Part shown: positions 8,295 through 58,215 of the stretch, piece by piece
Layout: each line of letters begins with the position of its first letter
Position numbering within the stretch: position 1 is the stretch's first letter
DNA from: Minisyncoccota bacterium
GTDB taxonomy: Bacteria; Patescibacteriota; Minisyncoccia; Phycocordibacterales; JAACPR01
DNA length: 64,000 nt
Reading direction: 5' to 3'
Assembly (NCBI GenBank): GCA_041674225.1
Contig: JBAYWG010000001.1
Coordinates: 169,401 to 233,400 of the forward strand
Position numbers and translations under genes: made by a program
The notes under the pieces: model-generated
Told to the model about the DNA's origin: nothing
What the model saw: only the letters and a program-made list of their open reading frames with translations
Database searches by the model: none

Positions 8295-9796
8295 ATTTCT
8301 TTTAGTGGTTCTGCGTCTTGTATATTTTCTAATCTTTTATAAACCAACTCTGCAGAAATTAAACAAATAGGCATACCGATTCCTGGATTTGTACCGGCAC
8401 CCACATAATAAAGATTCTTAACCTTCTTGCTAACATTATTCGGTCGAAAAATTGCAGTCTGACTCAATGAGTGTGCAAAACCTAGTGCAGTACCTTTAAA
8501 TGCATTGTAGTCCTTGATGAAGTCTTTTACAGAATAAAGCTTTTTATACACAATTCTATTTTTGAAATCTGGAATATCCATATTTTCTGCCATTTGATTT
8601 ATTACAAACTCAGAATATTCTTCTAGTGATTCATCAGTGTGATCTAAACCAGAAGCAATTGGCACAAGTACAAACAAATTTTCTTTATCAGCTGGCGCTA
8701 CATTTGCATCAGTTTTTGATGGACAACAAACATACAGAGAAGGATCTGTTGGCCATGTAGGTTTTTTAAATATTTGTGAAAAGTTTTCTTCCCAATTTTC
8801 AGCAAACAAAAGATTGTGGTGTTGCAGAGACGGAATTTTTCCTTCTACTCCCATGTACATAATAAATGCAGATGGTGCAAGCAATCGTGATTCCCAATAT
8901 TTTTTACTTTTCTCCCGGTGTGGCTCATCCAAAAGATGCATATCTGTGTGAGCAGTATCTGCATTTGAAATCACAATATCAGCTCGAAATTCTTGTCCGT
9001 TTTCCAATCTCACTCCCACAGCAGTTTTATTTTCAACAATAATTTTATTTACAGGACTGTTTAACAAAATCTCAACTCCGTGTTTTTTGGCAATAGTTTC
9101 CAACGCTTCTATGATTTTATAAATACCTCCTTCTGGATACCAAATTCCCTCCACAAAATCTACATAATTCATCATGCTATAAATCCCCGGCGCATCTCCA
9201 GGAGAAGTTCCAAGCAAAACAGTTTGATATTGCATTACTTTTCTCAGAATTTCGCTTTTGAATTTTTTCTCGATGATAGACTTCACACTTGAGAAGAGCG
9301 GGAGTTTTCTTCCTTCTTTCATTACTCTTTTGTTGAAGAAGTCAAAAATAGTATCGTAGTTTTTAAACATGAATTCATTTTTTGCGATTTCATATTGATA
9401 CTTTGTACTATCCATATATTTTCTCAAAACATCACCAGAACCCGGCTCCAAACTTTCAAAAGTTTCGATTGTTTTTTCTAAATCAGAATAAAAATCATAA
9501 TGTTTCTTTTCGCTTTTTAGAAAAATCCGGTACGAAGGAGAAAGTCTTTTTAATTTTAAATATTGAGTAATATCTTCACCCATCAATTTAAAAAAGTGCT
9601 CAAAAATATCTGGCATCATGTACCAAGACGGCCCCATATCAAAAACAAAACCATCTTCGGAATAGATTCTGGCTCTACCGCCGACTTGATCATTTTTTTC
9701 AATCATCTTCACCTTGTATCCCTTTTTAGCCAACATACAAGCCGTAGAAAGGCCTCCGATACCTGTTCCTATTATGATTACTTCTTTTTGACTCAT
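8291..9796 (-). CDS. crtI: Phytoene desaturase / CrtI-family FAD-dependent carotenoid desaturase
   Basis: VIIIGTGIGGLSTACMLAKKGYKVKMIEKNDQVGGRA FAD-binding N-terminus and length ~500 aa typical of CrtI. 4-nt overlap with crtB. Confidence 0.85.
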   Translation of the reverse strand: MSQKEVIIIGTGIGGLSTACMLAKKGYKVKMIEKNDQVGGRARIYSEDGFVFDMGPSWYMMPDIFEHFFKLMGEDITQYLKLKRLSPSYRIFLKSEKKHYDFYSDLEKTIETFESLEPGSGDVLRKYMDSTKYQYEIAKNEFMFKNYDTIFDFFNKRVMKEGRKLPLFSSVKSIIEKKFKSEILRKVMQYQTVLLGTSPGDAPGIYSMMNYVDFVEGIWYPEGGIYKIIEALETIAKKHGVEILLNSPVNKIIVENKTAVGVRLENGQEFRADIVISNADTAHTDMHLLDEPHREKSKKYWESRLLAPSAFIMYMGVEGKIPSLQHHNLLFAENWEENFSQIFKKPTWPTDPSLYVCCPSKTDANVAPADKENLFVLVPIASGLDHTDESLEEYSEFVINQMAENMDIPDFKNRIVYKKLYSVKDFIKDYNAFKGTALGFAHSLSQTAIFRPNNVSKKVKNLYYVGAGTNPGIGMPICLISAELVYKRLENIQDAEPLKEI

Positions 9797-10701
9797 GATT
9801 TTTTAATTAATGTTAAAAACGCTAACTTAAGTTTTTCTCCAAAACTTAAATGAACTCTGCCAGCGAAAATGTCGTATTTTACAACCTCTATCTTAACAAT
9901 AATTTTTGAATATAAAACTCGTGCTACTTTTATCGCTTTCGCCTCTCTTTTAGGCAACATTTGCAATCCGATATCAGCTTTTTTATAAAGATCTTCAGTT
10001 CTAGCAATTTCAAATTTCATCAAATCAATAAAATTTTGATTTATATTTTTATTAACTAAATCATCTTTTGTCACCCCAAACTTTTGCATTTCATCTTGTG
10101 GAAGATAAACTCTATCTCTTTGTATTACATCTTCATAAATATCGCGCAAAAAATTTGTCATTTGAAATGCTTCGCCAAGCGCTTTTGCATGATCTAGAAT
10201 TTTATTTCTATAATCTAAATCTGTAACAAATCTTTTATCTTTTGAACAAACTATATAAACCATCATATAACCCACTACTACAGCCGAACCATACATATAG
10301 TCTTCCAATTCTTTATAATTTTGATACTCAGTTTTTGAAGTATCTTGAATCATAGCCGAAATAAAATCTTCACTATATTCAAAAGAAATTTTGTATGTGT
10401 CAAAAACATATTTTGTGGCACGTAAAACTTTTAATTCATCTCCTTCGGCAAAATATTCTTCACCGCGATAACACTTACCCCACACCTCCTTCCACTCATT
10501 TAATTTTTCTAAAGCTAAATCTTTTTGATCTTTATATGTAGTATCTATATATTCATCTGGTAAACGAAAAAATGCATACAAAACACAGATCGCATCACGA
10601 TACTCCGCACCCATTAACAAAGTTCCAAAATAAAAACTCTTCCCATATTCTCGATGAACTCCTCTGCAAAACTCTAAATCTAAATTATATTCTGGGTACA
10701 T
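9793..10701 (-). CDS. crtB: Phytoene synthase (squalene/phytoene synthase family)
   Basis: YGKSFYFGTLLMGAEYRDAICVLYAFFRLPDEYID and YMYGSAVVVGYMM (YxYxVAGxVG) motifs. Confidence 0.85.
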   Translation of the reverse strand: MYPEYNLDLEFCRGVHREYGKSFYFGTLLMGAEYRDAICVLYAFFRLPDEYIDTTYKDQKDLALEKLNEWKEVWGKCYRGEEYFAEGDELKVLRATKYVFDTYKISFEYSEDFISAMIQDTSKTEYQNYKELEDYMYGSAVVVGYMMVYIVCSKDKRFVTDLDYRNKILDHAKALGEAFQMTNFLRDIYEDVIQRDRVYLPQDEMQKFGVTKDDLVNKNINQNFIDLMKFEIARTEDLYKKADIGLQMLPKREAKAIKVARVLYSKIIVKIEVVKYDIFAGRVHLSFGEKLKLAFLTLIKKS

Positions 10702-11804
10702 TAAGATTTTCTCTTATCAAGCAATATCACAAAATCAAACCACACGTCTTTGATCATTGGTTTAAGATTTGATTTCAAAATTATTTTGTTGGCTTTATCT
10801 AATTGAGAATGAATTTCCTTTTCAGCATAATCAATTGCGCCTGTTTCTTGAAAAAGTTTTTGCAATACAAGTACTGAATATTCATCAATTTCTTTTCCAA
10901 AAAGTGCTAAGAATATATTTCTATCATTTTCTTTGGCGTTTTCAAAAATATATTGCGTCAAAATTGTGTGTTGACCGTCTTGCACATCCAGCAACCTTTT
11001 CTTTCCTGTTTTTTTAGGATCTCCCACAATATCCAAAAGGTCGTCTTGTATTTGAAAAGCCTGACCCAAGCACAACCCCAATTCCTTATAAAAATCTTTG
11101 TTAATATTTTTTCCAGTCAAATTTGCACCGATCAACATTGGATTAACAAAAGAATAAAAGGCTGTTTTGTATTCATTTTTAAGAAAAATATCTTTCATCT
11201 CTACTTCGTACTGAAGCATAAAAGATACATCTAGTATTTGTCCTGCGACCACTTCCTCAATCATTCTAAAAAATATTTGCTGTACTTTTTTATTATTCAA
11301 ACTAGAAATAACTTCATGCGACCAACTAAAAATTAAATCTCCCGCCAAAATAGCAATGGATTCTGCAATGTGTTTTTTATCGCCTCGAGGATACGATGAA
11401 ATAAATTTTTCTAAATAAACATGCGTCGTGTCTTTGGAATGTCTTTCTACACCTTTATCAATAATATCATCATGAATCAAAGCAAACGCATGAAATAATT
11501 CTAAAGCAATTCCAGCTCGCAAAACTTCTTCTTGGTTCACACCACCTTCTGTAGAGTACGCCAAAAAAGCCATATATGGACGAACTCTTTTTCCACCTTC
11601 ACGTACCAAAGACACAGCATAGTCCACTGCTTCCAAACTTAATTTATTATCAGAAAAGTTTTTATAGTTTAAAACTTTGTCATCCAAATACTCATTTAAA
11701 CGAATATTAAAAATATCTTGAAAAGATTTCAGATCATACGCTTTTACAACAGGAATAAAGTTGATTTTTTCTAAGTGAAGGAAAGAAAGAATGTTTTTAA
11801 TCAT
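10701..11804 (-). CDS. Polyprenyl diphosphate synthase (GGPP/FPP synthase-type trans-prenyltransferase)
   Basis: First DDxxD (LIHDDIIDKG) and second DDxxD (FQIQDDLLDIVGDPKKTGKK) aspartate-rich motifs. Confidence 0.85.
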   Translation of the reverse strand: MIKNILSFLHLEKINFIPVVKAYDLKSFQDIFNIRLNEYLDDKVLNYKNFSDNKLSLEAVDYAVSLVREGGKRVRPYMAFLAYSTEGGVNQEEVLRAGIALELFHAFALIHDDIIDKGVERHSKDTTHVYLEKFISSYPRGDKKHIAESIAILAGDLIFSWSHEVISSLNNKKVQQIFFRMIEEVVAGQILDVSFMLQYEVEMKDIFLKNEYKTAFYSFVNPMLIGANLTGKNINKDFYKELGLCLGQAFQIQDDLLDIVGDPKKTGKKRLLDVQDGQHTILTQYIFENAKENDRNIFLALFGKEIDEYSVLVLQKLFQETGAIDYAEKEIHSQLDKANKIILKSNLKPMIKDVWFDFVILLDKRKS

Positions 11805-16080: not shown

Positions 16081-16120
16081 TAATAAAAGAAAAAGCCGGT
16101 TCGAGATGAGTCGAACCGGC
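16081..16120 (-). terminator. Rho-independent terminator for the minus-strand Ubl/E1/JAB unit (10-bp perfect stem gccggttcga/tcgaaccggc followed by a T-run on the minus strand)
   Basis: Read directly from the sequence. The T-tract is present only in the minus orientation. Confidence 0.65.
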
Positions 16121-16151
16121 TAAGTAAGTTAAGCCTGTTTGTTGGTAAGGC

Positions 16152-16520
16152 TTAGTTACCGCGAATCTTTGAAAAGATCAACACCTGTGCTCCTTCTTCG
16201 AGCACCTCCTCAAAATTGGAGATTGTCTGTCCGTTCAAACGAACCTCTCCTTCAATTTTGTCTCGATAACCGGCAATTACCAGCGCCTGTCTGATTGTGG
16301 TTCCAGAGTCCACCTCGAAAGGTTTGATCTGTCCACCGGGGAAAGCACCGACTTTCACGTTGATTTTCTCAACTTGTGCCGGAGTCTCCTTTTTGGAAGT
16401 TGCTTTCTTTGCAGCGGGTTTCTTGGTGGTTGCTTTCTTTGTGGTTCCTTTTTTCATGGTTCTTTTCTTTTGGTTTGTTTGTTGTTTACAGATTTTTTTA
16501 ACTGAACGACGAACCCACAA
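16152..16520 (-). CDS. Ubiquitin-like beta-grasp (ThiS/MoaD-like) protein with a Lys/Thr/Ala-rich histone-H1-like N-terminal tail. The C-terminus ...IFSKIRGN is not Gly-Gly
   Basis: The C-terminal ~75 aa (INVKVGAFPGG...EVRLNGQTISNFEEVLEEGAQVLIFSKIRGN) follow the ThiS/MoaD pattern. The N-terminal tail is MKKGTTKKATTKKPAAKKATSKKETPAQ. The gene overlaps the 3' end of the E1 gene by 23 nt; an alternative start is at 16457 (MKKGTTKK). Confidence 0.6.
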   Translation of the reverse strand: MWVRRSVKKICKQQTNQKKRTMKKGTTKKATTKKPAAKKATSKKETPAQVEKINVKVGAFPGGQIKPFEVDSGTTIRQALVIAGYRDKIEGEVRLNGQTISNFEEVLEEGAQVLIFSKIRGN

Positions 16521-17205
16521 TCATCATGGGTTGAAGTGAGAATATCAATTCATGCTCGAACTCATCGGTCGGTTCTTTACCTTCCTTAAGTTTCTGCATT
16601 TTCTGATACCATCGGATGAATTGCCACACAGCAAATCCCGAGACCATTTCTGCCGTCGGACCTACTGTGATAGTTGCTCCGCAAGCGGAGACTTCAGCAA
16701 CGTCATCACCATACAGAGTTTTTTCCCATCCCGAAACTTCTACGGGACTTGATGGATTCACTGTATAGATACGACCACTATTGGAACCCATACGAGTCTC
16801 AATAATAACCTCAACGTGAGGTCTGTAACGAAGTGATCCTTTCCAGATTTCTTGTCGTGAAGACATTGTATCTGTCAGCAGGAAAACAATCTGACCGAGA
16901 CGTTGTGTTCCATCAACTCGTTCATTGTGCACCGAAACTTCGGTACCTGTCTGCACGAGAATAATATCTTTCAACGCCTCAACCTTGAGTTGTCCATTGT
17001 GATTGTTACCGAATATTTGGTTTGGGACGTTGTGGGGTTCCACTACATCCGGATCCCAAATGTGAATGTTACGGATACCGAGCTTCGCCAACGAAAGGGC
17101 GATTCTAGATCCTGTAGCACCCACACCTATGATATCGATACGTCTATCACCAAATTCTTGCGGTGAAAACACATCAAGGTGTCTTATTACGTCTAGTTCT
17201 GGCAT
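16498..17205 (-). CDS. Minimal E1-like ubiquitin-activating/ThiF-MoeB family adenylyltransferase (235 aa, no rhodanese or zinc-ribbon domain)
   Basis: IDIIGVGATGSRIALSLAKLGIRNIHIWDPDVVEPHNVPNQIFG combines the GxGxxG P-loop and the DxDxVExxN...Q motif of the ThiF/MoeB/E1 superfamily. Confidence 0.8.
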   Translation of the reverse strand: MPELDVIRHLDVFSPQEFGDRRIDIIGVGATGSRIALSLAKLGIRNIHIWDPDVVEPHNVPNQIFGNNHNGQLKVEALKDIILVQTGTEVSVHNERVDGTQRLGQIVFLLTDTMSSRQEIWKGSLRYRPHVEVIIETRMGSNSGRIYTVNPSSPVEVSGWEKTLYGDDVAEVSACGATITVGPTAEMVSGFAVWQFIRWYQKMQKLKEGKEPTDEFEHELIFSLQPMMIVGSSFS

Positions 17206-17237: not shown

Positions 17238-18023
17238 TTAACGAAACCTTTTCCGGAAAAACCGGGGTTTATATTTTCCTCCAAAACCCTTGAAAAAGGG
17301 TGGTGAATACGGAGCGAACCGCAAAGCAGTAACTTTCCGTTTCATTTCCTCCCGAAGATCATTACGAATTTCATCCAGTTTGTCCCAGTCATCTATGTCT
17401 TCTTCTGTCCATTTCCATGGAACAGAATGAAAAGCGAAACCCTTCTCCCAGTCATAAATTCCGAAATTGATATCTCCTTGACGATTTAAGATACCGCGCA
17501 AGAAAAAATCAGTACCGAAACTTTGAAAGATTTTCATCTGATCATTATCTTGACCAGATGGGTAAGTTCCACCATTTCCATGTGAATGTCCCCAGAAGCG
17601 TATGTTGTTGAAGATTTCGTCACCACCTTCTTTCGAAAGGATTTCCATGACAAATTCTTGAAGAGCTTCTGGAAGAATTTCAGTATGGCCACCGCTCACA
17701 GTCTGAGGAAAGAGGAACACGTCATCGATGATGAAGTCTTCTCCTAGTCGCCGAGCAGTTCCAAGCCACCCCACTTCAATATTGATTGCACCTACAATAA
17801 CGTACATCTTGAAGAGGGCCAATGGACTGACAAATACAGTCGGAATATGGTGTTTCAACGTCAGAACTTCCAGAGTTGTATGGAAAACATCCGACGGAGC
17901 AAAAAATTGTCCGTCTGTCTCTGCGAATTCCCATTGGTAAGGCTGCGGAGGGGTTGGAGTATATGGGCGAGGAGCACCAACAATTTTTGCTGGCAGAGGG
18001 AGTTTAGTATTGTTTTTTTTCAT
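17238..18023 (-). CDS. JAB/JAMM (MPN+) metalloprotease-domain protein with a ~120-aa N-terminal extension
   Basis: Exact JAMM signature WGHSHGNGGTYPSGQD (HxHx7Sx2D) with an upstream acidic residue. 32 nt upstream of the E1 gene. Confidence 0.8.
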   Translation of the reverse strand: MKKNNTKLPLPAKIVGAPRPYTPTPPQPYQWEFAETDGQFFAPSDVFHTTLEVLTLKHHIPTVFVSPLALFKMYVIVGAINIEVGWLGTARRLGEDFIIDDVFLFPQTVSGGHTEILPEALQEFVMEILSKEGGDEIFNNIRFWGHSHGNGGTYPSGQDNDQMKIFQSFGTDFFLRGILNRQGDINFGIYDWEKGFAFHSVPWKWTEEDIDDWDKLDEIRNDLREEMKRKVTALRFAPYSPPFFKGFGGKYKPRFFRKRFR

Positions 18024-18112: not shown

Positions 18113-18152
18113 ATCTAATATAAAAAACCGCTCTCAGAAACTCTGAGAGCGG
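18113..18152 (-). terminator. Rho-independent terminator downstream of the 543-aa gene (stem accgctctcag/ctgagagcggt, T-run on minus strand)
   Basis: Read directly from the sequence. Confidence 0.6.
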
Positions 18153-18167
18153 TTTGACTTAAAGCCA

Positions 18168-19799
18168 TTATTTGATAGCAAGACTGCCATCAAATTCCTT
18201 CAAGAATTCCAGGACCAGCTCGATTACTGTTTCCAGATCGAGTTCTCCAAGAAGTTCCGGCAATGTCGCATGAAGAGGACCTATGGGTAGCCCTCCATCC
18301 CACATTGGGTGCAAATGAGGAATATTAATATCCGGCTCCATTTCGTTACCGATCGGAGAAATACTAACTAATCCTTTCAACACGTTGCACAAAATACGAA
18401 ACGATCCGATGTTGTGAATTTTTTCGGTTGAAATGTCCCTGCTTTTGATAGATCTAGTATCAACAACGAAGACATCATCTCCCTTGAAAAAGACACCCGA
18501 GACTTCCGGCCAGGCACTCACCCTTTGGATACGTTCATTGAACAAATCAGTGGTCACAGCAGCAGGAACCTTTACAAGGTTTTGGATAAAAACGTTTTGC
18601 GCTATCATCATCTGATTGCGACGAATATTATTCATCAACTTTTTCAGTTCATTTTCCTTATCCTGCTTCTGTGCTGCTCGTTCATCTACGAACAGATTAC
18701 GGAAAGCCGAGATCACGACAGGATCTTTAAGCGGTGGCTTTTTTGGATAATCGATACTTTTATCAACAACAGGAAACTTCCTCAAAACAGTGAGGTAATC
18801 TCCGTAATGAATTTCGTTTATCGTTCCAATTGCTTTAATGGCAACAAGGATGGACGCTTCGAACTCATAATCCTTGAGTAAAGGAAGAATAACCTTTCCT
18901 TCCCCCATACAAAATTGATTCGTGTACCGATCCACATGAGGATGACCAAAAGTGTGTCTTTCATACTCAACTCGACGAGTGAGGTTTTTAAACACAGCAG
19001 GTGTTTCTTCACCACCTCCAAAGAGAAGCTTGATCTCAAATTGTCCAAATTCATGAAGAATTTTAGTTCCGGGATCAACAGCATACATGGTCTGTGTGGT
19101 GAAAATGATTCTTCTACCATCCACTCTAATGTTCTGAATCTCAGGAATATTCCAAAGAGTTTGAAGCACCTTATCAGCTTCTTCGTAAGCTTGCTGGTTG
19201 TCATCATTCTTTGATACCAAAGAAGAAGTCAAAACAATATCGTTTTGAATCAGCCGACGATTTTCTGTAAGCTGTTTTTGAAGATCAACATCTTTCTTGG
19301 ACTTAGGAATTTTGAATTTCCCATTCTTGATTTGAACAAGACTAGGCAAATCTCCCCTGATGAGATTCATTGCTTCTGTAAGAATGTGTTTATACACATC
19401 CACGTTCGGCTTATTACAGCAATTGTTAGAAGCATCGTAAAGCAAATACAGATTATTTTTTCCAACGAGTTCTGCAACAGCATAATTGCTTTCAGGATCC
19501 ACAATAACAATCCCTCTACCAGAAGGTTGATATAGAGTACGATTACATGTACGAACTCTTTGTTTCCACAACTCGTCTGGAAGCGTCAATTCGACCTTAT
19601 CACCATCAGCAGTACCGAAGACGTTAAGAAAAAATGTAGTTGAAAAACGACGTACATCTCTTTGTCTTCCTTGACAGTTGTACAGTTGAATTTCATTGAA
19701 CCCCAATATTTCCAATGCATCACCCAAAACATCTCGGGTAGCTGATTCAAAAGAATCCGCAACACGAAAATCCCAATTTGTTTTTTCTATTCTTATCAT
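18168..19799 (-). CDS. Large hypothetical protein (543 aa) with a central UBC-like E2 active-site signature (ERHTFGHPHVDRYTNQFCMGEG; compare canonical HPN[IV]x3-4GxIC) flanked by uncharacterised N- and C-terminal regions
   Basis: Same strand and GC regime as the Ubl/E1/JAB genes. The E2-like call is motif-level only. Confidence 0.45.
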   Translation of the reverse strand: MIRIEKTNWDFRVADSFESATRDVLGDALEILGFNEIQLYNCQGRQRDVRRFSTTFFLNVFGTADGDKVELTLPDELWKQRVRTCNRTLYQPSGRGIVIVDPESNYAVAELVGKNNLYLLYDASNNCCNKPNVDVYKHILTEAMNLIRGDLPSLVQIKNGKFKIPKSKKDVDLQKQLTENRRLIQNDIVLTSSLVSKNDDNQQAYEEADKVLQTLWNIPEIQNIRVDGRRIIFTTQTMYAVDPGTKILHEFGQFEIKLLFGGGEETPAVFKNLTRRVEYERHTFGHPHVDRYTNQFCMGEGKVILPLLKDYEFEASILVAIKAIGTINEIHYGDYLTVLRKFPVVDKSIDYPKKPPLKDPVVISAFRNLFVDERAAQKQDKENELKKLMNNIRRNQMMIAQNVFIQNLVKVPAAVTTDLFNERIQRVSAWPEVSGVFFKGDDVFVVDTRSIKSRDISTEKIHNIGSFRILCNVLKGLVSISPIGNEMEPDINIPHLHPMWDGGLPIGPLHATLPELLGELDLETVIELVLEFLKEFDGSLAIK

Positions 19800-19865: not shown

Positions 19866-19906
19866 ATTATTAAAATAAAAAGCCGCCACCCAACCAGGGT
19901 GGCGGC
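19866..19906 (-). terminator. Rho-independent terminator downstream of the FAD-oxidoreductase gene (10-bp stem gccgccaccc/gggtggcggc, T-run on minus strand)
   Basis: Read directly from the sequence. Confidence 0.65.
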
Positions 19907-19913
19907 ATACACA

Positions 19914-21467
19914 TCAGCGAGCGAGCTGATATTCCGCGCTTCTCATAACAACACCAAACAAAACATCTCCAATCCGATGAAGCATGCCAGGAATGACGAT
20001 GGCATTCGGGTTGTGAGGAGTTTCCAACACAGACCCAAAGCCGTAATAACCAGACAAAATCCGCTTCTTAGGATCAGGACTGTGTTTGACGATAAACTCT
20101 CCATCGTAATCAAACAAAGGACACTTATCTACAGGATCGTAGGTGCAGCCCATGCTTTTCATAACTTCCGGCGAATTACCATACCCAATGAGTGTCATGA
20201 TCTTCCCAAAGGGAATTTTTTCAACCTCAGAGTGCTCTTTACGAAAGACGTAGACTTCCTTTCCAGCAACTTCCCAACGATTGACTCCATAAAGAATTTT
20301 TCCATTGTGAAGCGCACGGTAGTAATCACTACGACTTCTCGCAAGATCTCCCTGAAAATCAACCAGATTAGGAAGGGATACATCCCGAAATAATCTGCGT
20401 GCAACTCCATCAACGACAACAGTCGTGTTTGGATTATAAACACATTCTTCAGGGTAGTGAGTAAGAACACGATAGTCCACAGCCGCACCTCGATCAATCA
20501 GATTATGAATCTGAAAAAGCATCTCTGCCGTTGAATTACCGAGTCCGACGAGGATAATTCTCTTACCCTCAACTTCATCGCGATCAATAACCTTCTGCCA
20601 ACGTGAACCGGCTTGGGCAGTGGTCGCTTCAGTAGTCATGCGACTTGGATCAGAAAGCGGTTTTGGTTTACCGAGACCAATCGTATTAATAACGATTGGA
20701 AAAGTTTCTTTTTTTCCATTAGCGAAATGAAGCACGTGCTTCAACTTACCAGGAACAATCTTGACCACCGTCTCCTTTTTAGAACGGTAAGCTAGATTAT
20801 CTAGGAACCGGCGAACTTCTTCACCATCTCCAGGTGCAGGCCGCAAGATTCTATCAAAGAATTGTAGCTGACGTGGATTATTCCTAGACAGTCCAAAGAC
20901 ATTGTTCTGACTCCAGATACCCAGCGGCTTAGACTTCTCATATATGGTAATGTTATTAAAACCAAGTTGTCTGAGCGCGTAAGTGATAAGAATCCCCGCA
21001 GCCCCATAACCGACAACGGCAATTGGAACTCGAGACAAGGAATTTGGAATAGTAGATTGGCTGACAAAAAAAGTTGCCGCACCCTCTCCTAAAAACTGTT
21101 CCGGACTCCGAAGACCGCTATTGGCAAGAGCCAAATCGATACGACGATTCTGCAAATGTTCACCTCGATATTCAGGAAGATTATCTTCACTGTCGATAAA
21201 AGGAAGTGCTTGGGCATAACCATTAAGAACTCCTCCAACATCACCGACTCGAAGAACCAATTCAGAAAAAAGGTTACCCCAACGTCCTGTGTTTGACATT
21301 TCTTGGACAGCATCAAGACTGAATCCTTTCTCGTCAATCCATCTTCTCAGAACACCCAGCGAAACCTTTTTCATAAAAGAATCTCCTAGGGTCTTGAGCT
21401 TTTCACAAGCAGTCACTAAGTCACGAGGAGTTCTTTTTGAACTCATTCTTTTTGAAGCGGTATTCAT
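19914..21467 (-). CDS. FAD/NAD(P)-binding oxidoreductase with two dinucleotide-binding motifs (flavin monooxygenase / pyridine-nucleotide-disulfide-oxidoreductase-like) and a ~150-aa N-terminal extension
   Basis: VPIAVVGYGAAGILITYALRQLGFNNITIYEKSKPLG (GxGxxG) and RIILVGLGNSTAEMLFQIHNL (GxGxxA) Rossmann motifs. Confidence 0.7.
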   Translation of the reverse strand: MNTASKRMSSKRTPRDLVTACEKLKTLGDSFMKKVSLGVLRRWIDEKGFSLDAVQEMSNTGRWGNLFSELVLRVGDVGGVLNGYAQALPFIDSEDNLPEYRGEHLQNRRIDLALANSGLRSPEQFLGEGAATFFVSQSTIPNSLSRVPIAVVGYGAAGILITYALRQLGFNNITIYEKSKPLGIWSQNNVFGLSRNNPRQLQFFDRILRPAPGDGEEVRRFLDNLAYRSKKETVVKIVPGKLKHVLHFANGKKETFPIVINTIGLGKPKPLSDPSRMTTEATTAQAGSRWQKVIDRDEVEGKRIILVGLGNSTAEMLFQIHNLIDRGAAVDYRVLTHYPEECVYNPNTTVVVDGVARRLFRDVSLPNLVDFQGDLARSRSDYYRALHNGKILYGVNRWEVAGKEVYVFRKEHSEVEKIPFGKIMTLIGYGNSPEVMKSMGCTYDPVDKCPLFDYDGEFIVKHSPDPKKRILSGYYGFGSVLETPHNPNAIVIPGMLHRIGDVLFGVVMRSAEYQLAR

Positions 21468-55474: not shown

Positions 55475-57982
55475 CTAGCTTTTTAGAGTCCACCCATCAT
55501 TCAACATTTCTTCTGCTTTTTTCCATTTTACCTCTTTTTCTTCACCGTCTTTTTCAATTTTTACAATATCATTCCTACCAAATTTTGGAGATGTGCTTTG
55601 ATTATTTTCAGAAGTTTGATCTTGGTTAGAAATCATTTGAGCTTTTTTCATTGTCTCTTTCAATTTTTCTTCTTCTTTTTGAAAAGCTCCAGCTCCAATG
55701 TGAGGTAAAAGATTAATTATATTCTCATCAATACCAGCAAGCATTTCATTAAACACTCGCAAACCTTCTTTTTTATACTCAATTAAAGGGTCTCTTTGAC
55801 CATAGGCTCTCAGACCTACACTTGAACGCAAATAACTCATCAGTTCCAAATGATCTATCCAAAAATTATCAATAGATTGCAACATCAATCTTCTCAATGC
55901 AGCGATTAATTCTTCCTCATTTAAAATTGCCTTTTTTTCTTCAACAATTTTTGAAACTTTTTCATCCAAACTAGCAAGTCTTTTCAATTCTGACTCTATA
56001 TAAGGAACATCTCCCAGAAGTAGTTTTCTTCTTCTTTCATAAATAGACTTTCTTTGTGTATTTAAAACGTTATCGAATTCTAAAATATGTTTTCGTGAAT
56101 CAAAGTTAAAACCTTCAATTTTTGTTTGAGCAGATTCTAGAGATTTTGTGATAATTTTATTTTCAATAGGTTGATCTTCTGGCAGGCCTAGTTTACTCAT
56201 CAAAGTTTTTACACCTGAAGAAGCAAAAATTCTCATTAAGGAATCATCCAAAGAAACAAAGAATTGTGTCTCTCCTGGATCTCCCTGACGTCCAGAACGA
56301 CCTCGTAACTGATTATCGATTCTGCGAGCGTCGTGTCTTTCTGTACCAACTACAAATAATCCCCCCAAAGATTTTATCTCTTTATAAGCATCTTCTTCAT
56401 ATGGTGCACCTCCCAAAATAATATCTACTCCACGACCAGCCATGTTTGTGGCAATAGTCACAGAACCCTTTCGTCCAGCTTGTGCGATTATTTGACCTTC
56501 TTGTTCGTGATTTTTTGCATTCAAAACTTGATGAGGAATTCCTTCTGAAGCAAGAAAAGTTGAGAGTAGTTCGTTTGTTTCAATAGAAACAGTACCAATC
56601 AAAACCGGTTGACCTGTTGAGTGGATTTCTTTTACTTTTTTTGCAATCGCTTTAAACTTTCCTATTTGAGTTTGAAAAATTAAATCATCTCTATCCAAAC
56701 GAATAGTTGGCGAGTTTGGAGGAACTGTTACAACATCCAGATTGTAAACTTTCAAAAACTCCTCTCCGTTAGTTTTTGCTGTACCAGACATACCAGAAAG
56801 TTTTTCATACATTCTAAAATAATTTTGATATGTGATAGAAGCGTAAGTTCTAGACTCTTGTTGAATCTTTACACCCTCCTTCGCCTCGATAGCTTGATGA
56901 AGTCCTTCAGACCATCTTCGTCCTGGTTGCATTCTTCCAGTAAATTCATCCACAATAACAATTTCATTATCTTTCACCACATATTGTTTATCTTTTTTGA
57001 AAAGAGATTTAGCTCGAACAGCAGTTTCCAAATGATGCACATATTTAACACCTTTTTCTGTATAGATATTTTCAACTCCAAGTGCTTTCTCTGCTTTATC
57101 AATTCCAGAATCATTTATCGAAACGGCTTTTAATTTTTCATCAACTGTAAAATCCTCATCTTCTTTTAACTGTTCTGCAATCTGTGAAAAAATACCATAA
57201 AGGTCTTGTGAATCCGCCGCCGGAGCAGAAATAATAAGCGGAGTTCTGGCTTCATCAATAAGAATTGAATCTATTTCATCAATAATTGCGAAGTTATGGC
57301 CTCTTTGTCTTAAAGAATTTTCATTATATTCGATGTTGTCTCTCAAATAATCAAAACCAAATTCACTGTTTGTTCCATATGTAATGTCCGCGGCATAAGC
57401 TTCTTTTCTTGTAACTGGTCGCAAAAATTCGTGAACTATTTTAAATGAACCTTCCTCATCTCTTTCTTCATCCAAATTTTGATGTGCTGAGTCATAAATA
57501 AAAGAACCAGCTTGAGCAATCACACCCACACTCAATCCAAGGAAGTCATGAATTTGTCCCATCCAAACAGCATCTCTTTGTGAAAGATAATCGTTTACCG
57601 TCACAACATGAACTCCTTTTCCACTAAGTGCATTTAAATAAGAAGGCAGAGTCGCCATCAAAGTTTTTCCTTCACCAGTACGCATTTCTGCTAAGTTACC
57701 ATCATTCAAAATCATTCCTCCAATAAGTTGAACATCGAAGTGTCTTTTTTCTGAAACTCTTTTCGAAGCTTCGCGCACAACAGCAAAAGCTTCTGGCAAA
57801 ATATCATCTAAAGTTGAACCTGATTGCAATCTGTTTTTAAATTCTTCAGTTTTAGATCTTAATTCTGCGTCGCTTAGTTTTTGAAGGTTTTCTTCAAAAG
57901 AATTAATAAGAGGAACACGCGCTTCGTAGCGTTTTAGCATCTTTTCGTTTTCGTCTTTAAACAGACCCGATAAAAATCCCAT
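55475..57982 (-). CDS. secA: Preprotein translocase ATPase SecA
   Basis: LRTGEGKTLMATLPSYLNAL Walker A region, DEAD-like motor, 835 aa. Confidence 0.95.
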   Translation of the reverse strand: MGFLSGLFKDENEKMLKRYEARVPLINSFEENLQKLSDAELRSKTEEFKNRLQSGSTLDDILPEAFAVVREASKRVSEKRHFDVQLIGGMILNDGNLAEMRTGEGKTLMATLPSYLNALSGKGVHVVTVNDYLSQRDAVWMGQIHDFLGLSVGVIAQAGSFIYDSAHQNLDEERDEEGSFKIVHEFLRPVTRKEAYAADITYGTNSEFGFDYLRDNIEYNENSLRQRGHNFAIIDEIDSILIDEARTPLIISAPAADSQDLYGIFSQIAEQLKEDEDFTVDEKLKAVSINDSGIDKAEKALGVENIYTEKGVKYVHHLETAVRAKSLFKKDKQYVVKDNEIVIVDEFTGRMQPGRRWSEGLHQAIEAKEGVKIQQESRTYASITYQNYFRMYEKLSGMSGTAKTNGEEFLKVYNLDVVTVPPNSPTIRLDRDDLIFQTQIGKFKAIAKKVKEIHSTGQPVLIGTVSIETNELLSTFLASEGIPHQVLNAKNHEQEGQIIAQAGRKGSVTIATNMAGRGVDIILGGAPYEEDAYKEIKSLGGLFVVGTERHDARRIDNQLRGRSGRQGDPGETQFFVSLDDSLMRIFASSGVKTLMSKLGLPEDQPIENKIITKSLESAQTKIEGFNFDSRKHILEFDNVLNTQRKSIYERRRKLLLGDVPYIESELKRLASLDEKVSKIVEEKKAILNEEELIAALRRLMLQSIDNFWIDHLELMSYLRSSVGLRAYGQRDPLIEYKKEGLRVFNEMLAGIDENIINLLPHIGAGAFQKEEEKLKETMKKAQMISNQDQTSENNQSTSPKFGRNDIVKIEKDGEEKEVKWKKAEEMLNDGWTLKS

Positions 57983-58059: not shown

Positions 58060-58215
58060 TTATCGTTTCTTTGTTGTCTTCTTTTTAGCAGCTGGTCGTT
58101 TTGTTGCTTTTTTAGCTGTCTTTTTTACTGTCTTCTTAACAGCTTTTTTTACAACTTTTTTAACAGCCTTTTTCTTTGGAGCTGCTTTTTTTGTTGCTTT
58201 TTTCTTTGTTGCCAT
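58060..58215 (-). CDS. Small lysine/alanine-rich histone-H1/Hc1-like protein (51 aa: MATKKKATKKAAPKKKAVKKVVKKAVKKTVKKTAKKATKRPAAKKKTTKKR)
   Basis: Hand-translated minus-strand ORF not in the ORF track (<60 aa). Composition mirrors the N-terminal tail of the Ubl protein at 16152..16520. Confidence 0.5.
   Translation of the reverse strand: MATKKKATKKAAPKKKAVKKVVKKAVKKTVKKTAKKATKRPAAKKKTTKKR

Follow-up and report, generated by a model that had tools for sequence, protein, structure and literature searches.

The locus described here raises the question of what a small, predicted ubiquitin-like protein (Ubl) with a lysine-rich tail and a Gly-Asn end, in place of Gly-Gly, is doing in the genome of a Minisyncoccota bacterium (GCA_041674225.1). 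The gene lies in a 64,000-nucleotide stretch (the window) covering positions 169,401 to 233,400 of contig JBAYWG010000001.1. The original prediction described an open reading frame at 16152..16520 as a ThiS/MoaD-type Ubl fused to a histone H1-like tail, with a terminus suggesting either JAB-dependent processing or a non-canonical activation chemistry. The observation itself was confirmed, although the start, and hence the length, of the protein required correction. The interpretation was supported only in part, as the tail label and the supposed peculiarity of the terminus did not hold up, and as the feature considered most important here, a conserved set of neighbouring genes including an E2/UEV-like protein, had not been recognized. 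This set looks like a bacterial and phage version of the ubiquitin tagging machinery, of which literature searches for the family, or for a Gly-Asn Ubl, found no description.

The gene, its lysine-rich tail and its predicted fold

The open reading frame exists on the minus strand, but the TTG at 16520 overlaps the 3' end of the upstream E1 gene, whose stop is at 16498-16500. The real start is the ATG at 16457, giving a protein of 101 aa, which is also the deposited annotation (hypothetical protein WC087_00990, Candidatus Paceibacterota), and the lysine-rich residues originally described as the first ~30 already begin at this ATG. A start downstream of the lysine-rich segment had been named in advance as a result that would overturn the claim, and this was examined. 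There is no canonical Shine-Dalgarno sequence before the ATG, the spacer is A-rich, and the repeat that encodes the tail runs 12 nt upstream of the ATG, all of which could suggest that the tail is an annotation artefact of an A-rich spacer. However, this ATG is the only Met codon in the frame, and the first alternative, a GTG at Val34, would delete half of strand beta-1. All orthologues, moreover, have in-frame open N-terminal extensions of differing sequence that begin at an ATG just after their E1 stop (25–35 nt), so that an untranslated tail appears very improbable, and the original reading of the tail as translated and Lys-rich is supported.

Table 1. Coordinates within the window of the Ubl gene, its parts and the neighbouring features.
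Position	Strand	Feature
16094..16121	-	Terminator-like hairpin after the Ubl gene
16152..16457	-	Ubl gene, 101 aa plus stop
16155..16169	-	C-terminal tail K97-I98-R99-G100-N101, with the family hallmark [KR]-G-N
16170..16367	-	Predicted beta-grasp core, residues 31-96, with the invariant GAFPGG turn
16368..16457	-	Disordered Lys-rich N-terminal tail, residues 1-30, (KKxxx)x5
16419..16469		15-nt tandem repeat underlying the pentapeptide repeat
16498..17205	-	Minimal ThiF-type E1, 235 aa, with GVGATGS and an invariant Cys175 (nt 16681-16683)
17238..18023	-	JAMM/MPN+ metallopeptidase, 261 aa, E83 ... H146-S-H148-x7-S156-x2-D159
18125-18155		Similar hairpin, after the E2-like gene
18168..19799	-	543-aa protein: N-terminal domain, E2-like module with the catalytic-type motif, coiled coil, Cys-less UEV/RWD-like module
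18909..18944	-	Invariant G-H286-P-H288-V-D-R ... C297-x-G-E-G motif of the E2-like module (HPH-x8-Cys)
19882-19906		Similar hairpin, after the flavoprotein-like gene
19914..21467	-	517-aa flavoprotein-like protein with two Rossmann motifs

The tail contains 10 Lys in 30 residues, arranged as five pentapeptides (KKGTT, KKATT, KKPAA, KKATS and KKETP), and the underlying repeat was reported by TRF with a period of 15, 3.4 copies and 80% matches. Lys makes up 7.2% of residues in the long ORFs of the window, so that about 0.27 segments with 10 or more Lys in 28 residues are expected by chance, and only the 51-aa ORF at 58060-58215 is more Lys-rich. The label "histone H1/Hc1-like" is, however, only compositional, as the Pfam HC2 model scores E = 0.045 and 14.3 bits against a 40-bit cut-off, and the NCBIfam Rv3852 family model scores E = 0.098. 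The tail is a fast-evolving slippage repeat whose sequence is not conserved. Similar basic tails recur in the relatives P0012, P0031 and P0033, but the tail is missing from the orthologues at loci L002 and L007, which keep the whole cassette and the invariant RGN end, so it is not core to the mechanism.

Fold prediction and alignment to profiles of known Ubls, both of which had been put forward beforehand as ways to check the assignment, agreed with it. AlphaFold2 with a 42-sequence alignment gives beta-beta-alpha-beta-beta-beta for residues 31-95 at a pLDDT of about 95, while the tail scores 56–58. The top Foldseek hits in the PDB are MoaD (6jbz_B, TM 0.73), Mth1743, TtuB, SAMP1, SUMO, ubiquitin and ISG15. 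The window protein alone hits no Pfam model, and relatives give only weak matches to SAMP2, ThiS, RnfH and Ub-Mut7C, but the family profile hits PF1061/SAMP2 at 1.8e-5 (including chain 5lda_B of the PfJAMM1-SAMP2 complex), MoaD at 6.6e-5 and ThiS at 0.03.

Neighbouring genes and their distribution

The Ubl gene ends a conserved set of four upstream genes, encoding a flavoprotein-like protein, the 543-aa E2/UEV-like protein, an Rpn11-like JAMM peptidase and a minimal E1; the position of the Ubl next to an E1 and an intact JAMM/JAB peptidase supports the original interpretation. In 7 other loci, identities to the window proteins are 68–78% for the E1, 43–52% for the JAMM, 30–34% for the E2-like protein and 37–57% for the Ubl, with host GC ranging from 35 to 68%. 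A ThiF-family gene lies immediately upstream of the Ubl in the window and in all 7 related loci, and is also there for the relatives P0009 and P0010. Terminator-like hairpins separate the E2-like gene from the JAMM-E1-Ubl unit, though these are consensus matches only, with 11 found against 5.8 expected. A prophage reading of the window was rejected, because ddl and pyrG flank a 5–6-gene island of raised GC.

The E1 has a single ThiF domain covering residues 21-203 (Pfam, 2.9e-17) and aligns end to end with the 251-aa ThiF, with Cys175 aligned to ThiF Cys184. Its family profile hits MccB at 5.8e-12 and ThiF at 3.3e-11, whereas PaaA is the top hit for the single sequence, and all NCBIfam ThiF/MoeB equivalog scores are far below their cut-offs. 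The JAMM motif is conserved in all orthologues, and the closest solved relatives are Rpn11 (1.7e-5) and CSN5.

The E2 assignment rests on remote homology only. The two modules of the 543-aa protein match each other at E = 8.8e-13, and the HPH...C motif is invariant in 7 orthologues and is also present at locus L010 and in the 892-aa protein of phage PhiXhv-12. An hhalign comparison of module 1 alone with E2s gave nothing, as did a PDB sequence search with the whole protein beyond coiled-coil noise, and only a mixed 12-sequence module profile placed H286-P-H288 and Cys297 on the HPN and catalytic Cys of E2s (H75-P-N77 and Cys85 of UBE2D2), at E = 2.8e-4. No structure was modelled from the roughly 50 viral E2-like homologues. 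The flavoprotein-like protein is 52–54% identical in L002, L003, L005 and L007, with the motifs VGYGAAGI and GLGNSTAEM conserved, but Pfam matches to NAD_binding_8 and Pyr_redox are sub-threshold, and its link to the system is unexplained.

Pfam, NCBIfam (2026), PADLOC (2023) and PHROGs gave nothing for the Ubl, the JAMM or the E2-like protein apart from a sub-threshold Prok-JAB match. Word-indexed searches found only 1–2 relatives per query, even with a 7-sequence profile, and it was an exhaustive search of representatives that revealed a family of at least 263 clusters, including tandem "poly-Ubl" forms of 2–4 units. A 3148-aa protein (P0007) with 21 matched stretches was a false positive, being an adhesin-like repeat with no KGN ends, and the family maximum seen is 4 units.

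The core cassette, without the flavoprotein, is common on viral metagenome contigs. The E1 was found on 178 IMG/VR contigs, and of the best 80 loci, 70 have a GN-Ubl, 77 the JAMM and 52 the E2-like module, although CPR contigs can be mistaken for viral ones. Neighbours include phage DNA polymerase, DnaB-like helicase and thymidylate synthase. Apparent hits to the 517-aa protein in viral loci were the Rossmann fold of the E1 and therefore artefacts, and the flavoprotein-like gene is specific to the CPR loci. SbcC-like and SbcD-like genes flank the cassette at L013, L014 and L015, and an SbcC/SMC-like gene does so at L010, but only 8 of 80 viral loci show this, and a general link was therefore not retained. 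Searches by tblastn of deposited phage genomes with the Ubl, or with a 2-unit relative, found nothing, as did a BLAST search of plasmids with the E1 and a viral scan with GAFPGG-subfamily patterns, while cultured phages carry only distant E1 relatives at 25–32% identity.

The Gly-Asn terminus and the proposed mechanism

The C-terminal RGN is invariant in all 7 orthologues. The non-GG end is not a peculiarity of this protein, as originally implied, but the hallmark of a large family: K or R precedes the Gly in 245 of 269 units, and the following residue is Asn in 233 (87%), Ala in 21 and Gly in 14. Exactly one residue follows the Gly in 74 of 143 terminal units, and conservation stops after this residue.

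The most likely explanation, held with moderate confidence, is that the product is the modifier of a ubiquitination-like protein-conjugation cassette encoded on the minus strand from 19799 to 16152. In this view, the JAMM peptidase would mature the Ubl, with a cut between Gly100 and Asn101 favoured here, and in relatives would also cut poly-Ubl and Ubl-fusion precursors. The E1, presumably a homodimer, would adenylate the new C-terminus and may take it onto Cys175, after which the Ubl would pass to Cys297 of the E2-like module, with the UEV/RWD-like module and the N-terminal domain positioning the Ubl or selecting targets. The Ubl would then be ligated to lysines, and the JAMM would reverse the modification. 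The tail would be an accessory, not needed for the core reaction, that could supply acceptor lysines for self-conjugation or chains, or bind polyanions. The predicted fold, the motifs, the conserved gene set and the family distribution come directly from the analysis, whereas every catalytic step is inferred; no biochemical data exist for any member, and neither cleavage after the Gly nor isopeptide conjugation was assayed here. Removal of the Asn by the JAMM, as originally proposed, is a reasonable reading with a direct precedent, as BilC cuts BilA between Gly97 and Ala98, and poly-Ubl relatives with units each ending in KGN imply proteolytic processing at this motif. The conserved flavoprotein-like neighbour has no place in this model, strong conservation of Asn is unusual for a disposable cap, and the terminator-like hairpins that separate the E2-like gene from the JAMM-E1-Ubl unit also count against it.

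Alternatively, the Asn may be kept and be the residue that the E1 activates, with the JAMM in relatives cutting after Asn. An adenylated Asn101 would cyclize to a succinimide, as in MccB acting on MccA, which could be opened by a Cys or Lys nucleophile to give an Asn/isoAsn-linked conjugate, or be converted to a peptidyl-nucleotide. The protein ends exactly at this position in about half the members, and members ending in KGG or KGA show that it tolerates only N, A or G. Profile alignments place G-N on the G-G of SAMP2, PF1061 and MoaD, I-R-G-N matches the L-R-G-G register of ubiquitin, and MccB is the best PDB match of the E1 profile. However, MccB outscores ThiF by only 2.5 bits, and only over the Rossmann half (positions 11-99), and the E1 lacks the N-terminal peptide-clamp domain of MccB. 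Variants with Ala or Gly cannot form a succinimide, E. aridi BilA has the same hydrophobic-x-G-x end and is experimentally cut after the Gly, and, to our knowledge, every characterized JAMM Ubl peptidase cuts after Gly. This reading is considered less likely, though whether the Asn is trimmed, as in BilA, or is itself activated, as with MccB, is still open, and if true it would represent a new ubiquitin-like conjugation chemistry in a mainly phage-encoded system with genetically encoded poly-Ubl precursors, such that phages, rather than only their hosts, would tag proteins with ubiquitin-like modifiers.

Two further explanations appear very unlikely. The Ubl could be a sulfur carrier, like ThiS, MoaD, CysO, QbsE or HcyS, that the E1 converts to a thiocarboxylate and the JAMM only uncaps, with the flavoprotein-like protein acting in a small-molecule pathway. 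This would agree with the nearest structural and profile relatives (MoaD, ThiS, TtuB and SAMP2), with the ThiF/MoeB-type E1, with the conserved oxidoreductase-like neighbour and with the JAMM uncapping of sulfur carriers by QbsD, HcyD and Mec+. There is, however, no Gly-Gly end, and no rhodanese domain, CxxC zinc site, or sulfurtransferase or biosynthetic partner was found in any locus. Tandem poly-Ubl relatives make no sense for a sulfur carrier, an E2-like protein is conserved in the cassette, and the core cassette lies in phage replication modules without the flavoprotein. The protein could also be a non-conjugated adaptor whose basic tail binds DNA or RNA, like H1, Hc1 or HC2, and whose beta-grasp domain mediates protein contacts, with the neighbouring enzymes acting on something else. 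The weak HC2 match, the DNA-metabolism genes around the phage versions and the existence of non-conjugated beta-grasp proteins such as YukD are in line with this, but the orthologues at L002 and L007 lack the tail, the tail sequence is not conserved, and a flexible [KR]-G-N end conserved across at least 263 clusters, next to an E1, points to C-terminal chemistry.

The biological role is probably in phage-host conflict or phage replication control, because the same core cassette is common in phage replication modules. Bacterial ubiquitination-like systems (CBASS Cap2/3, Bil and Bub) have only recently been shown to be real conjugation machines, and are central to ideas on the origin of eukaryotic ubiquitin. 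The cassette would add a further architecture, with the smallest E1 type, one protein carrying both an active E2-like and a UEV-like module, an Rpn11/CSN5-like JAMM, and mono- and poly-Ubl precursors with a conserved Lys/Arg-Gly-Asn end. It occurs in reduced CPR/Patescibacteria genomes but is more common on phage contigs, next to replication genes, which raises the possibility that phages tag proteins themselves, for host takeover, counter-defence or replication control. The conserved Asn offers a sharp and cheap test of whether all Ubl systems use a C-terminal Gly, and the four proteins, being small and separate, suit reconstitution in E. coli.

Comparison with known systems

The type II Bil (BilABCD) system (Chambers et al., preprint 10.1101/2023.09.26.559546; Hor et al., 2024) has the same four separate components, and its single-domain Ubl has a single conserved Gly followed by a short extension, from which BilC removes one residue before adenylation; the Ubl can be conjugated to itself, and variable N-terminal tails on bacterial Ubls are documented. 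The cassette is nonetheless not Bil, as its E1 is a single adenylation domain without the inactive adenylation domain and the inserted, mobile CYS domain of BilD, its E2-like protein carries tandem modules and coiled coils, the residue after the Gly is a conserved Asn and not a variable one, and many members are phage-borne. The absence of PADLOC and NCBIfam hits leaves this comparison where it was, since whether these libraries contain Bil models was not checked.

Nor is the cassette Bub (operon type 6e of Iyer et al., 2006), which has Ubl-E2 or E2-E1 fusions, a JAB-E1 fusion and a DUF6527 serine protease, and works through oxyester intermediates. Here, the genes are separate, no DUF6527 was detected by Pfam, and Cys is conserved in both the E1 and the E2-like module. 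Type II CBASS, in which an E2-E1 fusion (Cap2) acts on a CD-NTase alongside a Cap3 JAB, can likewise be set aside, as the PADLOC "E1-E2" models match only the Rossmann part of the E1 (residues 16-107), and there is no CD-NTase in the neighbourhood.

In archaeal sampylation (SAMP2/UbaA/JAMM1), SAMP2 is the closest sequence-profile relative of the Ubl, the E1 is also of the minimal MoeB/ThiF type with a crossover-loop Cys, and a JAMM acts as the isopeptidase. Sampylation uses no E2, however, and SAMPs end in Gly-Gly and double as sulfur carriers, whereas here there is an E2-like partner, a Gly-Asn end and poly-Ubl relatives. In MccA/MccB (microcin C7) and PaaP/PaaA, a ThiF-fold adenylating enzyme also acts on a substrate whose C-terminal residue is a conserved Asn, but MccA is a heptapeptide, and the E1 here matches only MccB residues 108-198. 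No export or immunity genes are present in the neighbourhood, and the substrate is a folded 70-aa domain, by prediction, accompanied by a JAMM and an E2-like protein.

With respect to eukaryotic polyubiquitin, Ubc13-Mms2 and Rpn11, there is no detectable direct sequence relationship to ubiquitin itself, the E1 is minimal, the two E2-like modules lie on one polypeptide, and no E3 was identified. Relatives nevertheless encode head-to-tail poly-Ubl precursors, yeast UBI4 also ends with one extra Asn, the hydrophobic-Arg-Gly-X register is shared, the JAMM is closest to Rpn11 and CSN5, and the pairing of an active E2 module with a Cys-less UEV-like module recalls Ubc13-Mms2.

The open reading frame and its predicted fold

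The ORF described in the original prediction is real and lies on the minus strand, although its start required correction. The listed 122-aa ORF starts at a TTG inside the 3' end of the upstream gene, whereas the only ATG in the frame lies 40 nt after the stop of that gene, giving a 101-aa protein (MKKGTTKKATTKKPAAKKATSKKETPAQVEKINVKVGAFPGG...VLIFSKIRGN) which is exactly the deposited "hypothetical protein" of a Candidatus Paceibacterota MAG on a 476-kb contig. Orthologues also start at an ATG 25–35 nt after the stop of their E1 gene. The coordinates of this and the other features discussed here are as follows.

Positions of the features in the window and in the compared loci
Sequence	Position	Strand	Feature
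Window	9793-11804	-	Adjacent ORFs for a squalene/phytoene-synthase-like and a polyprenyl-synthetase-like protein
Window	16094-16121	-	Terminator-like hairpin after the Ubl gene
Window	16419-16469		15-nt tandem repeat encoding the tail
Window	16457	-	ATG start of the Ubl gene (101 aa)
Window	16498-17205	-	ThiF-type E1 (235 aa); stop at 16498-16500
Window	16520	-	TTG start of the listed 122-aa ORF
Window	17238-18023	-	JAMM peptidase (261 aa)
Window	18125-18155	-	Terminator-like hairpin after the E2-like gene
Window	18168-19799	-	E2-like protein (543 aa)
Window	19866-19838	-	TTGACA-17-TATTCT promoter-like site before the E2-like gene
Window	19882-19906	-	Terminator-like hairpin after the flavoprotein-like gene
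Window	19914-21467	-	Flavoprotein-like protein (517 aa)
Window	55475-57982		secA
Window	58060-58215	-	Lys-rich ORF (51 aa)
L001	370-1074		E1 compared with the window E1
L002	6678-8216		Flavoprotein-like protein
L003	3059-4591		Flavoprotein-like protein
L005	2294-3832		Flavoprotein-like protein
L007	2164-3696		Flavoprotein-like protein
L008	139-2618		Two tandem paralogues of the E2-like protein
L010	293-6923		Cassette with an SbcC/SMC-like neighbor
L012 (Xanthomonas phage PhiXhv-12, PV764601.1)	138517-149044		E1 and adjacent 892-aa protein
L013	2394-9229		Cassette with SbcD-like and SbcC/SMC-like neighbors
L014	2653-9401		Cassette with SbcD-like and SbcC/SMC-like neighbors

The window protein alone matched no Pfam, NCBIfam, PADLOC or PHROG model. 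An exhaustive profile search with the core of this protein and its one close homologue, however, found 263 cluster representatives at E ≤ 1e-3, and with 42 of these as the alignment, AlphaFold2 predicted a beta-beta-alpha-beta-beta-beta domain for residues 31–95 at a pLDDT of about 95. Foldseek placed the model with MoaD, Mth1743, TtuB, SAMP1, SUMO, ubiquitin and ISG15, whilst the family profile hit Pyrococcus SAMP2/PF1061 at 1.8e-5 and MoaD at 6.6e-5. A fold other than beta-grasp had been named in advance as an outcome that would overturn the prediction, and this was not what was found; the protein is a ubiquitin-like protein (Ubl). The interpretation originally attached to the ORF was nevertheless only partly supported, as the likeness of its N-terminal tail to histone H1 and chlamydial Hc1 proved, like that to HC2, to be compositional only.

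The C-terminus is a hallmark of the family, with all seven orthologues ending in ...[IV]RGN. Among 269 units scored in the top 149 family members, the residue before the Gly is K or R in 245, and the residue after the Gly is N in 233, A in 21 and G in 14. Of 143 terminal units, 74 have exactly one residue after the Gly and 36 have exactly two. Two thirds of the members are head-to-tail repeats of 2–4 units, each ending in KGN with essentially no spacer, and a few are Ubl-X fusions, which implies that a protease must cut at this motif. One apparent 21-unit member is a false positive. Some family Ubls carry extensions after KGN, one being a Lys-rich tail with a CCGCGC motif (family member P0095) and two being hydrophobic (F/V-R-F)n tails (P0093 and P0106), and these resemble cleavable C-terminal cargo or anchors.

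The N-terminal tail

Residues 1–30 hold 10 Lys arranged as five KKxxx pentapeptides, encoded by a 15-nt tandem repeat, and are predicted to be disordered, with a pLDDT of 56–58. As Lys makes up 7.2% of residues in the long ORFs of this window, about 0.27 such stretches would be expected by chance. Only one ORF is richer in Lys, a free-standing 51-aa ORF just downstream of secA that is 45% Lys (MATKKKATKKAAPKKKAVKK...), is built from 12-, 15- and 24-nt tandem repeats and has no Pfam match. It may be a small histone-like or polyanion-binding protein, or it may not be a gene.

In the subfamily closest to the window protein, which shares the GAFPG[G] turn, 8 of 11 representatives have N-terminal extensions of 16 aa or more, four of which are strongly basic with a net charge of +8 to +9, whilst others are Gly-rich or neutral. 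The orthologues in loci L002 and L007 have only about 10 neutral residues yet keep the whole gene set, and elsewhere in the family the median extension is 2 residues. Six of the seven strongly basic tails occur on single-unit proteins (Fisher p = 0.006), but four of these belong to one subfamily, so this is weak support for the idea that a Lys-rich tail substitutes for encoded poly-Ubl. Variable N-terminal tails on bacterial Ubls are already known, including N/G-rich tails, coiled coils and DUF1508.

A conserved gene set and its distribution

Upstream of the Ubl on the same strand lie four genes, encoding a ThiF-type E1 (Pfam ThiF, 2.9e-17), a JAMM peptidase, a 543-aa protein with no family match and a 517-aa flavoprotein-like protein. 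All five genes recur together in MAGs of Saccharibacteria, Paceibacterota, Parcubacteria and other Patescibacteria, and in two further metagenomic contigs, with host GC ranging from 35 to 68%. The E1 stays 68–78% identical throughout, reaching 78% between a 35%-GC Paceibacterota genome and a 68%-GC contig (the comparison with locus L001), whereas the E2-like partner, the 543-aa protein, is only 30–34% identical across loci. The E1 is under very strong constraint, and horizontal transfer is likely. In the window the genes have a GC content of 0.38–0.44 against 0.30–0.37 in the flanks and sit between ddl and pyrG, and therefore form an accessory island, not a prophage. Three strong terminator-like hairpins follow the Ubl, E2-like and flavoprotein-like genes, suggesting three transcription units or attenuation points within the island. 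Elsewhere in the window of this reduced CPR genome, ORFs for squalene/phytoene-synthase-like and polyprenyl-synthetase-like proteins lie adjacent, a reading made from the translations only and not checked with family models.

The JAMM peptidase has the complete E83...H146-x-H148-x7-S156-x2-D159 motif, and its closest solved relatives are Rpn11 (1.7e-5) and CSN5. The E1 family profile aligns over its whole length with E. coli ThiF and puts the single invariant Cys175 on ThiF Cys184; MccB scores marginally better than ThiF, but only over the Rossmann half.

The 543-aa protein consists of an N-terminal domain and two homologous modules separated by coiled coil, which match each other in hhalign at E = 8.8e-13. 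The first module carries an invariant G-H-P-H-V-D-R-x(4,5)-C-x-G-E-G motif, whilst the second lacks the Cys. A 12-sequence module profile aligned against four eukaryotic E2s, the sequences of which were entered by hand rather than retrieved from a database, gave E = 2.8e-4 and placed H286-P-H288 on H75-P-N77 and Cys297 on the catalytic Cys85 of UBE2D2. This is taken as reasonable but not conclusive evidence for an active E2-like module followed by a UEV-like module. In locus L008, two tandem paralogues of the E2-like protein (366 and 462 aa) sit on one short contig, the second being an inactive variant with APNV in place of HPHV and no catalytic Cys.

The flavoprotein-like protein (510–517 aa) has two Rossmann motifs (VGYGAAGI and GLGNSTAEM) and a roughly 130-aa N-terminal domain, is 52–54% identical across CPR loci and always lies next to the cassette, in either orientation. 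A search found no PDB relative and only sub-threshold Pfam hits, and its role alongside a Ubl system is unexplained. The gene is specific to the CPR version, as its apparent hits in viral loci were the E1 Rossmann fold.

A related four-gene set lies in locus L010, comprising a 531-aa E2-like protein with APHV...C, a JAMM, an E1 and a 3x poly-Ubl, and sits between an SMC-like ATPase and a helicase. A scan of IMG/VR with the E1 profile found 178 viral contigs at 34–55% identity. In the best 80 loci (±6 kb of flank), 70 encode a GN-type Ubl, 77 the JAMM and 52 the E2-like module, often in the same gene order as in the window (E2-like, JAMM, E1, Ubl). Classification in IMG/VR is not proof of viral origin, and CPR contigs can be misclassified, although the neighbors, which include phage-type DNA polymerase, DnaB-like helicase, thymidylate synthase and SbcCD-like proteins, look phage-like where they are replication genes. 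Contig sizes reach 208 kb. In some viral or metagenomic loci the cassette is bracketed by SbcD-like phosphoesterase and SbcC/SMC-like ATPase genes (L013 and L014) or flanked by an SbcC/SMC-like gene (L010), but only 8 of the 80 viral loci show an SbcC-like neighbor.

Cultured jumbo Xanthomonas and Erwinia phages and crAss-like phages carry only distant E1 relatives. In the jumbo phage PhiXhv-12 (locus L012), the E1 is annotated "thiamine biosynthesis protein" and lies directly after an 892-aa protein with an IHPH...C E2-like module and Cys-rich ends. Nearby are a 140-aa protein ending in ...KASGG with a low-complexity N-tail and a 146-aa protein with a Lys-rich C-tail, but no JAMM was detected. 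This is probably a distant GG-type cousin of the cassette, and the annotation is probably wrong.

Proposed mechanism and comparison with known systems

The best-supported reading is a JAMM-matured, E1/E2-like-driven Ubl conjugation system, the steps of which are inferred from homology. The scissile and activated residue is the open point, and two readings of it are considered. Trimming between G100 and N101 agrees with the observation that BilC cuts E. aridi BilA between G97 and A98, one residue from the end of a hydrophobic-x-G-x terminus, with the cleavage after Gly, so far as is known, by all characterized JAMM Ubl peptidases, and with the existence of Ala and Gly variants at the Asn position. 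Alternatively, the Asn may be retained, as it is conserved far more than a disposable cap should be and the conservation boundary lies after it, G-N aligns on the G-G of SAMP2 and MoaD, I-R-G-N mirrors the L-R-G-G of ubiquitin, and MccB, whose substrate ends in Asn, is the best structural-database match of the E1 profile. Trimming is considered somewhat more likely than not, whilst activation of the Asn is a possible but tentative alternative.

The interest of the finding lies less in the tail than in the protein being the modifier of an uncharacterized and apparently widespread conjugation cassette, much of it phage-borne, with a conserved non-Gly terminal residue. Literature searches found no description of a Gly-Asn Ubl family or of this cassette, which may be compared with several systems that are already known. 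The cassette is not Bub, which has fusions, DUF6527 and oxyester chemistry, nor is it CBASS Cap2/3, as there is no CD-NTase and no E2-E1 fusion. It is not a sulfur-carrier pathway, because there is no sulfur-transfer context and poly-Ubl forms exist, and it is not a microcin C system. Whilst its Ubl, JAMM and E2-like protein were not recognized by the curated models searched, which were not checked for the presence of Bil models, and its E1 does not have the architecture of BilD, in this reading the cassette works like Bil.
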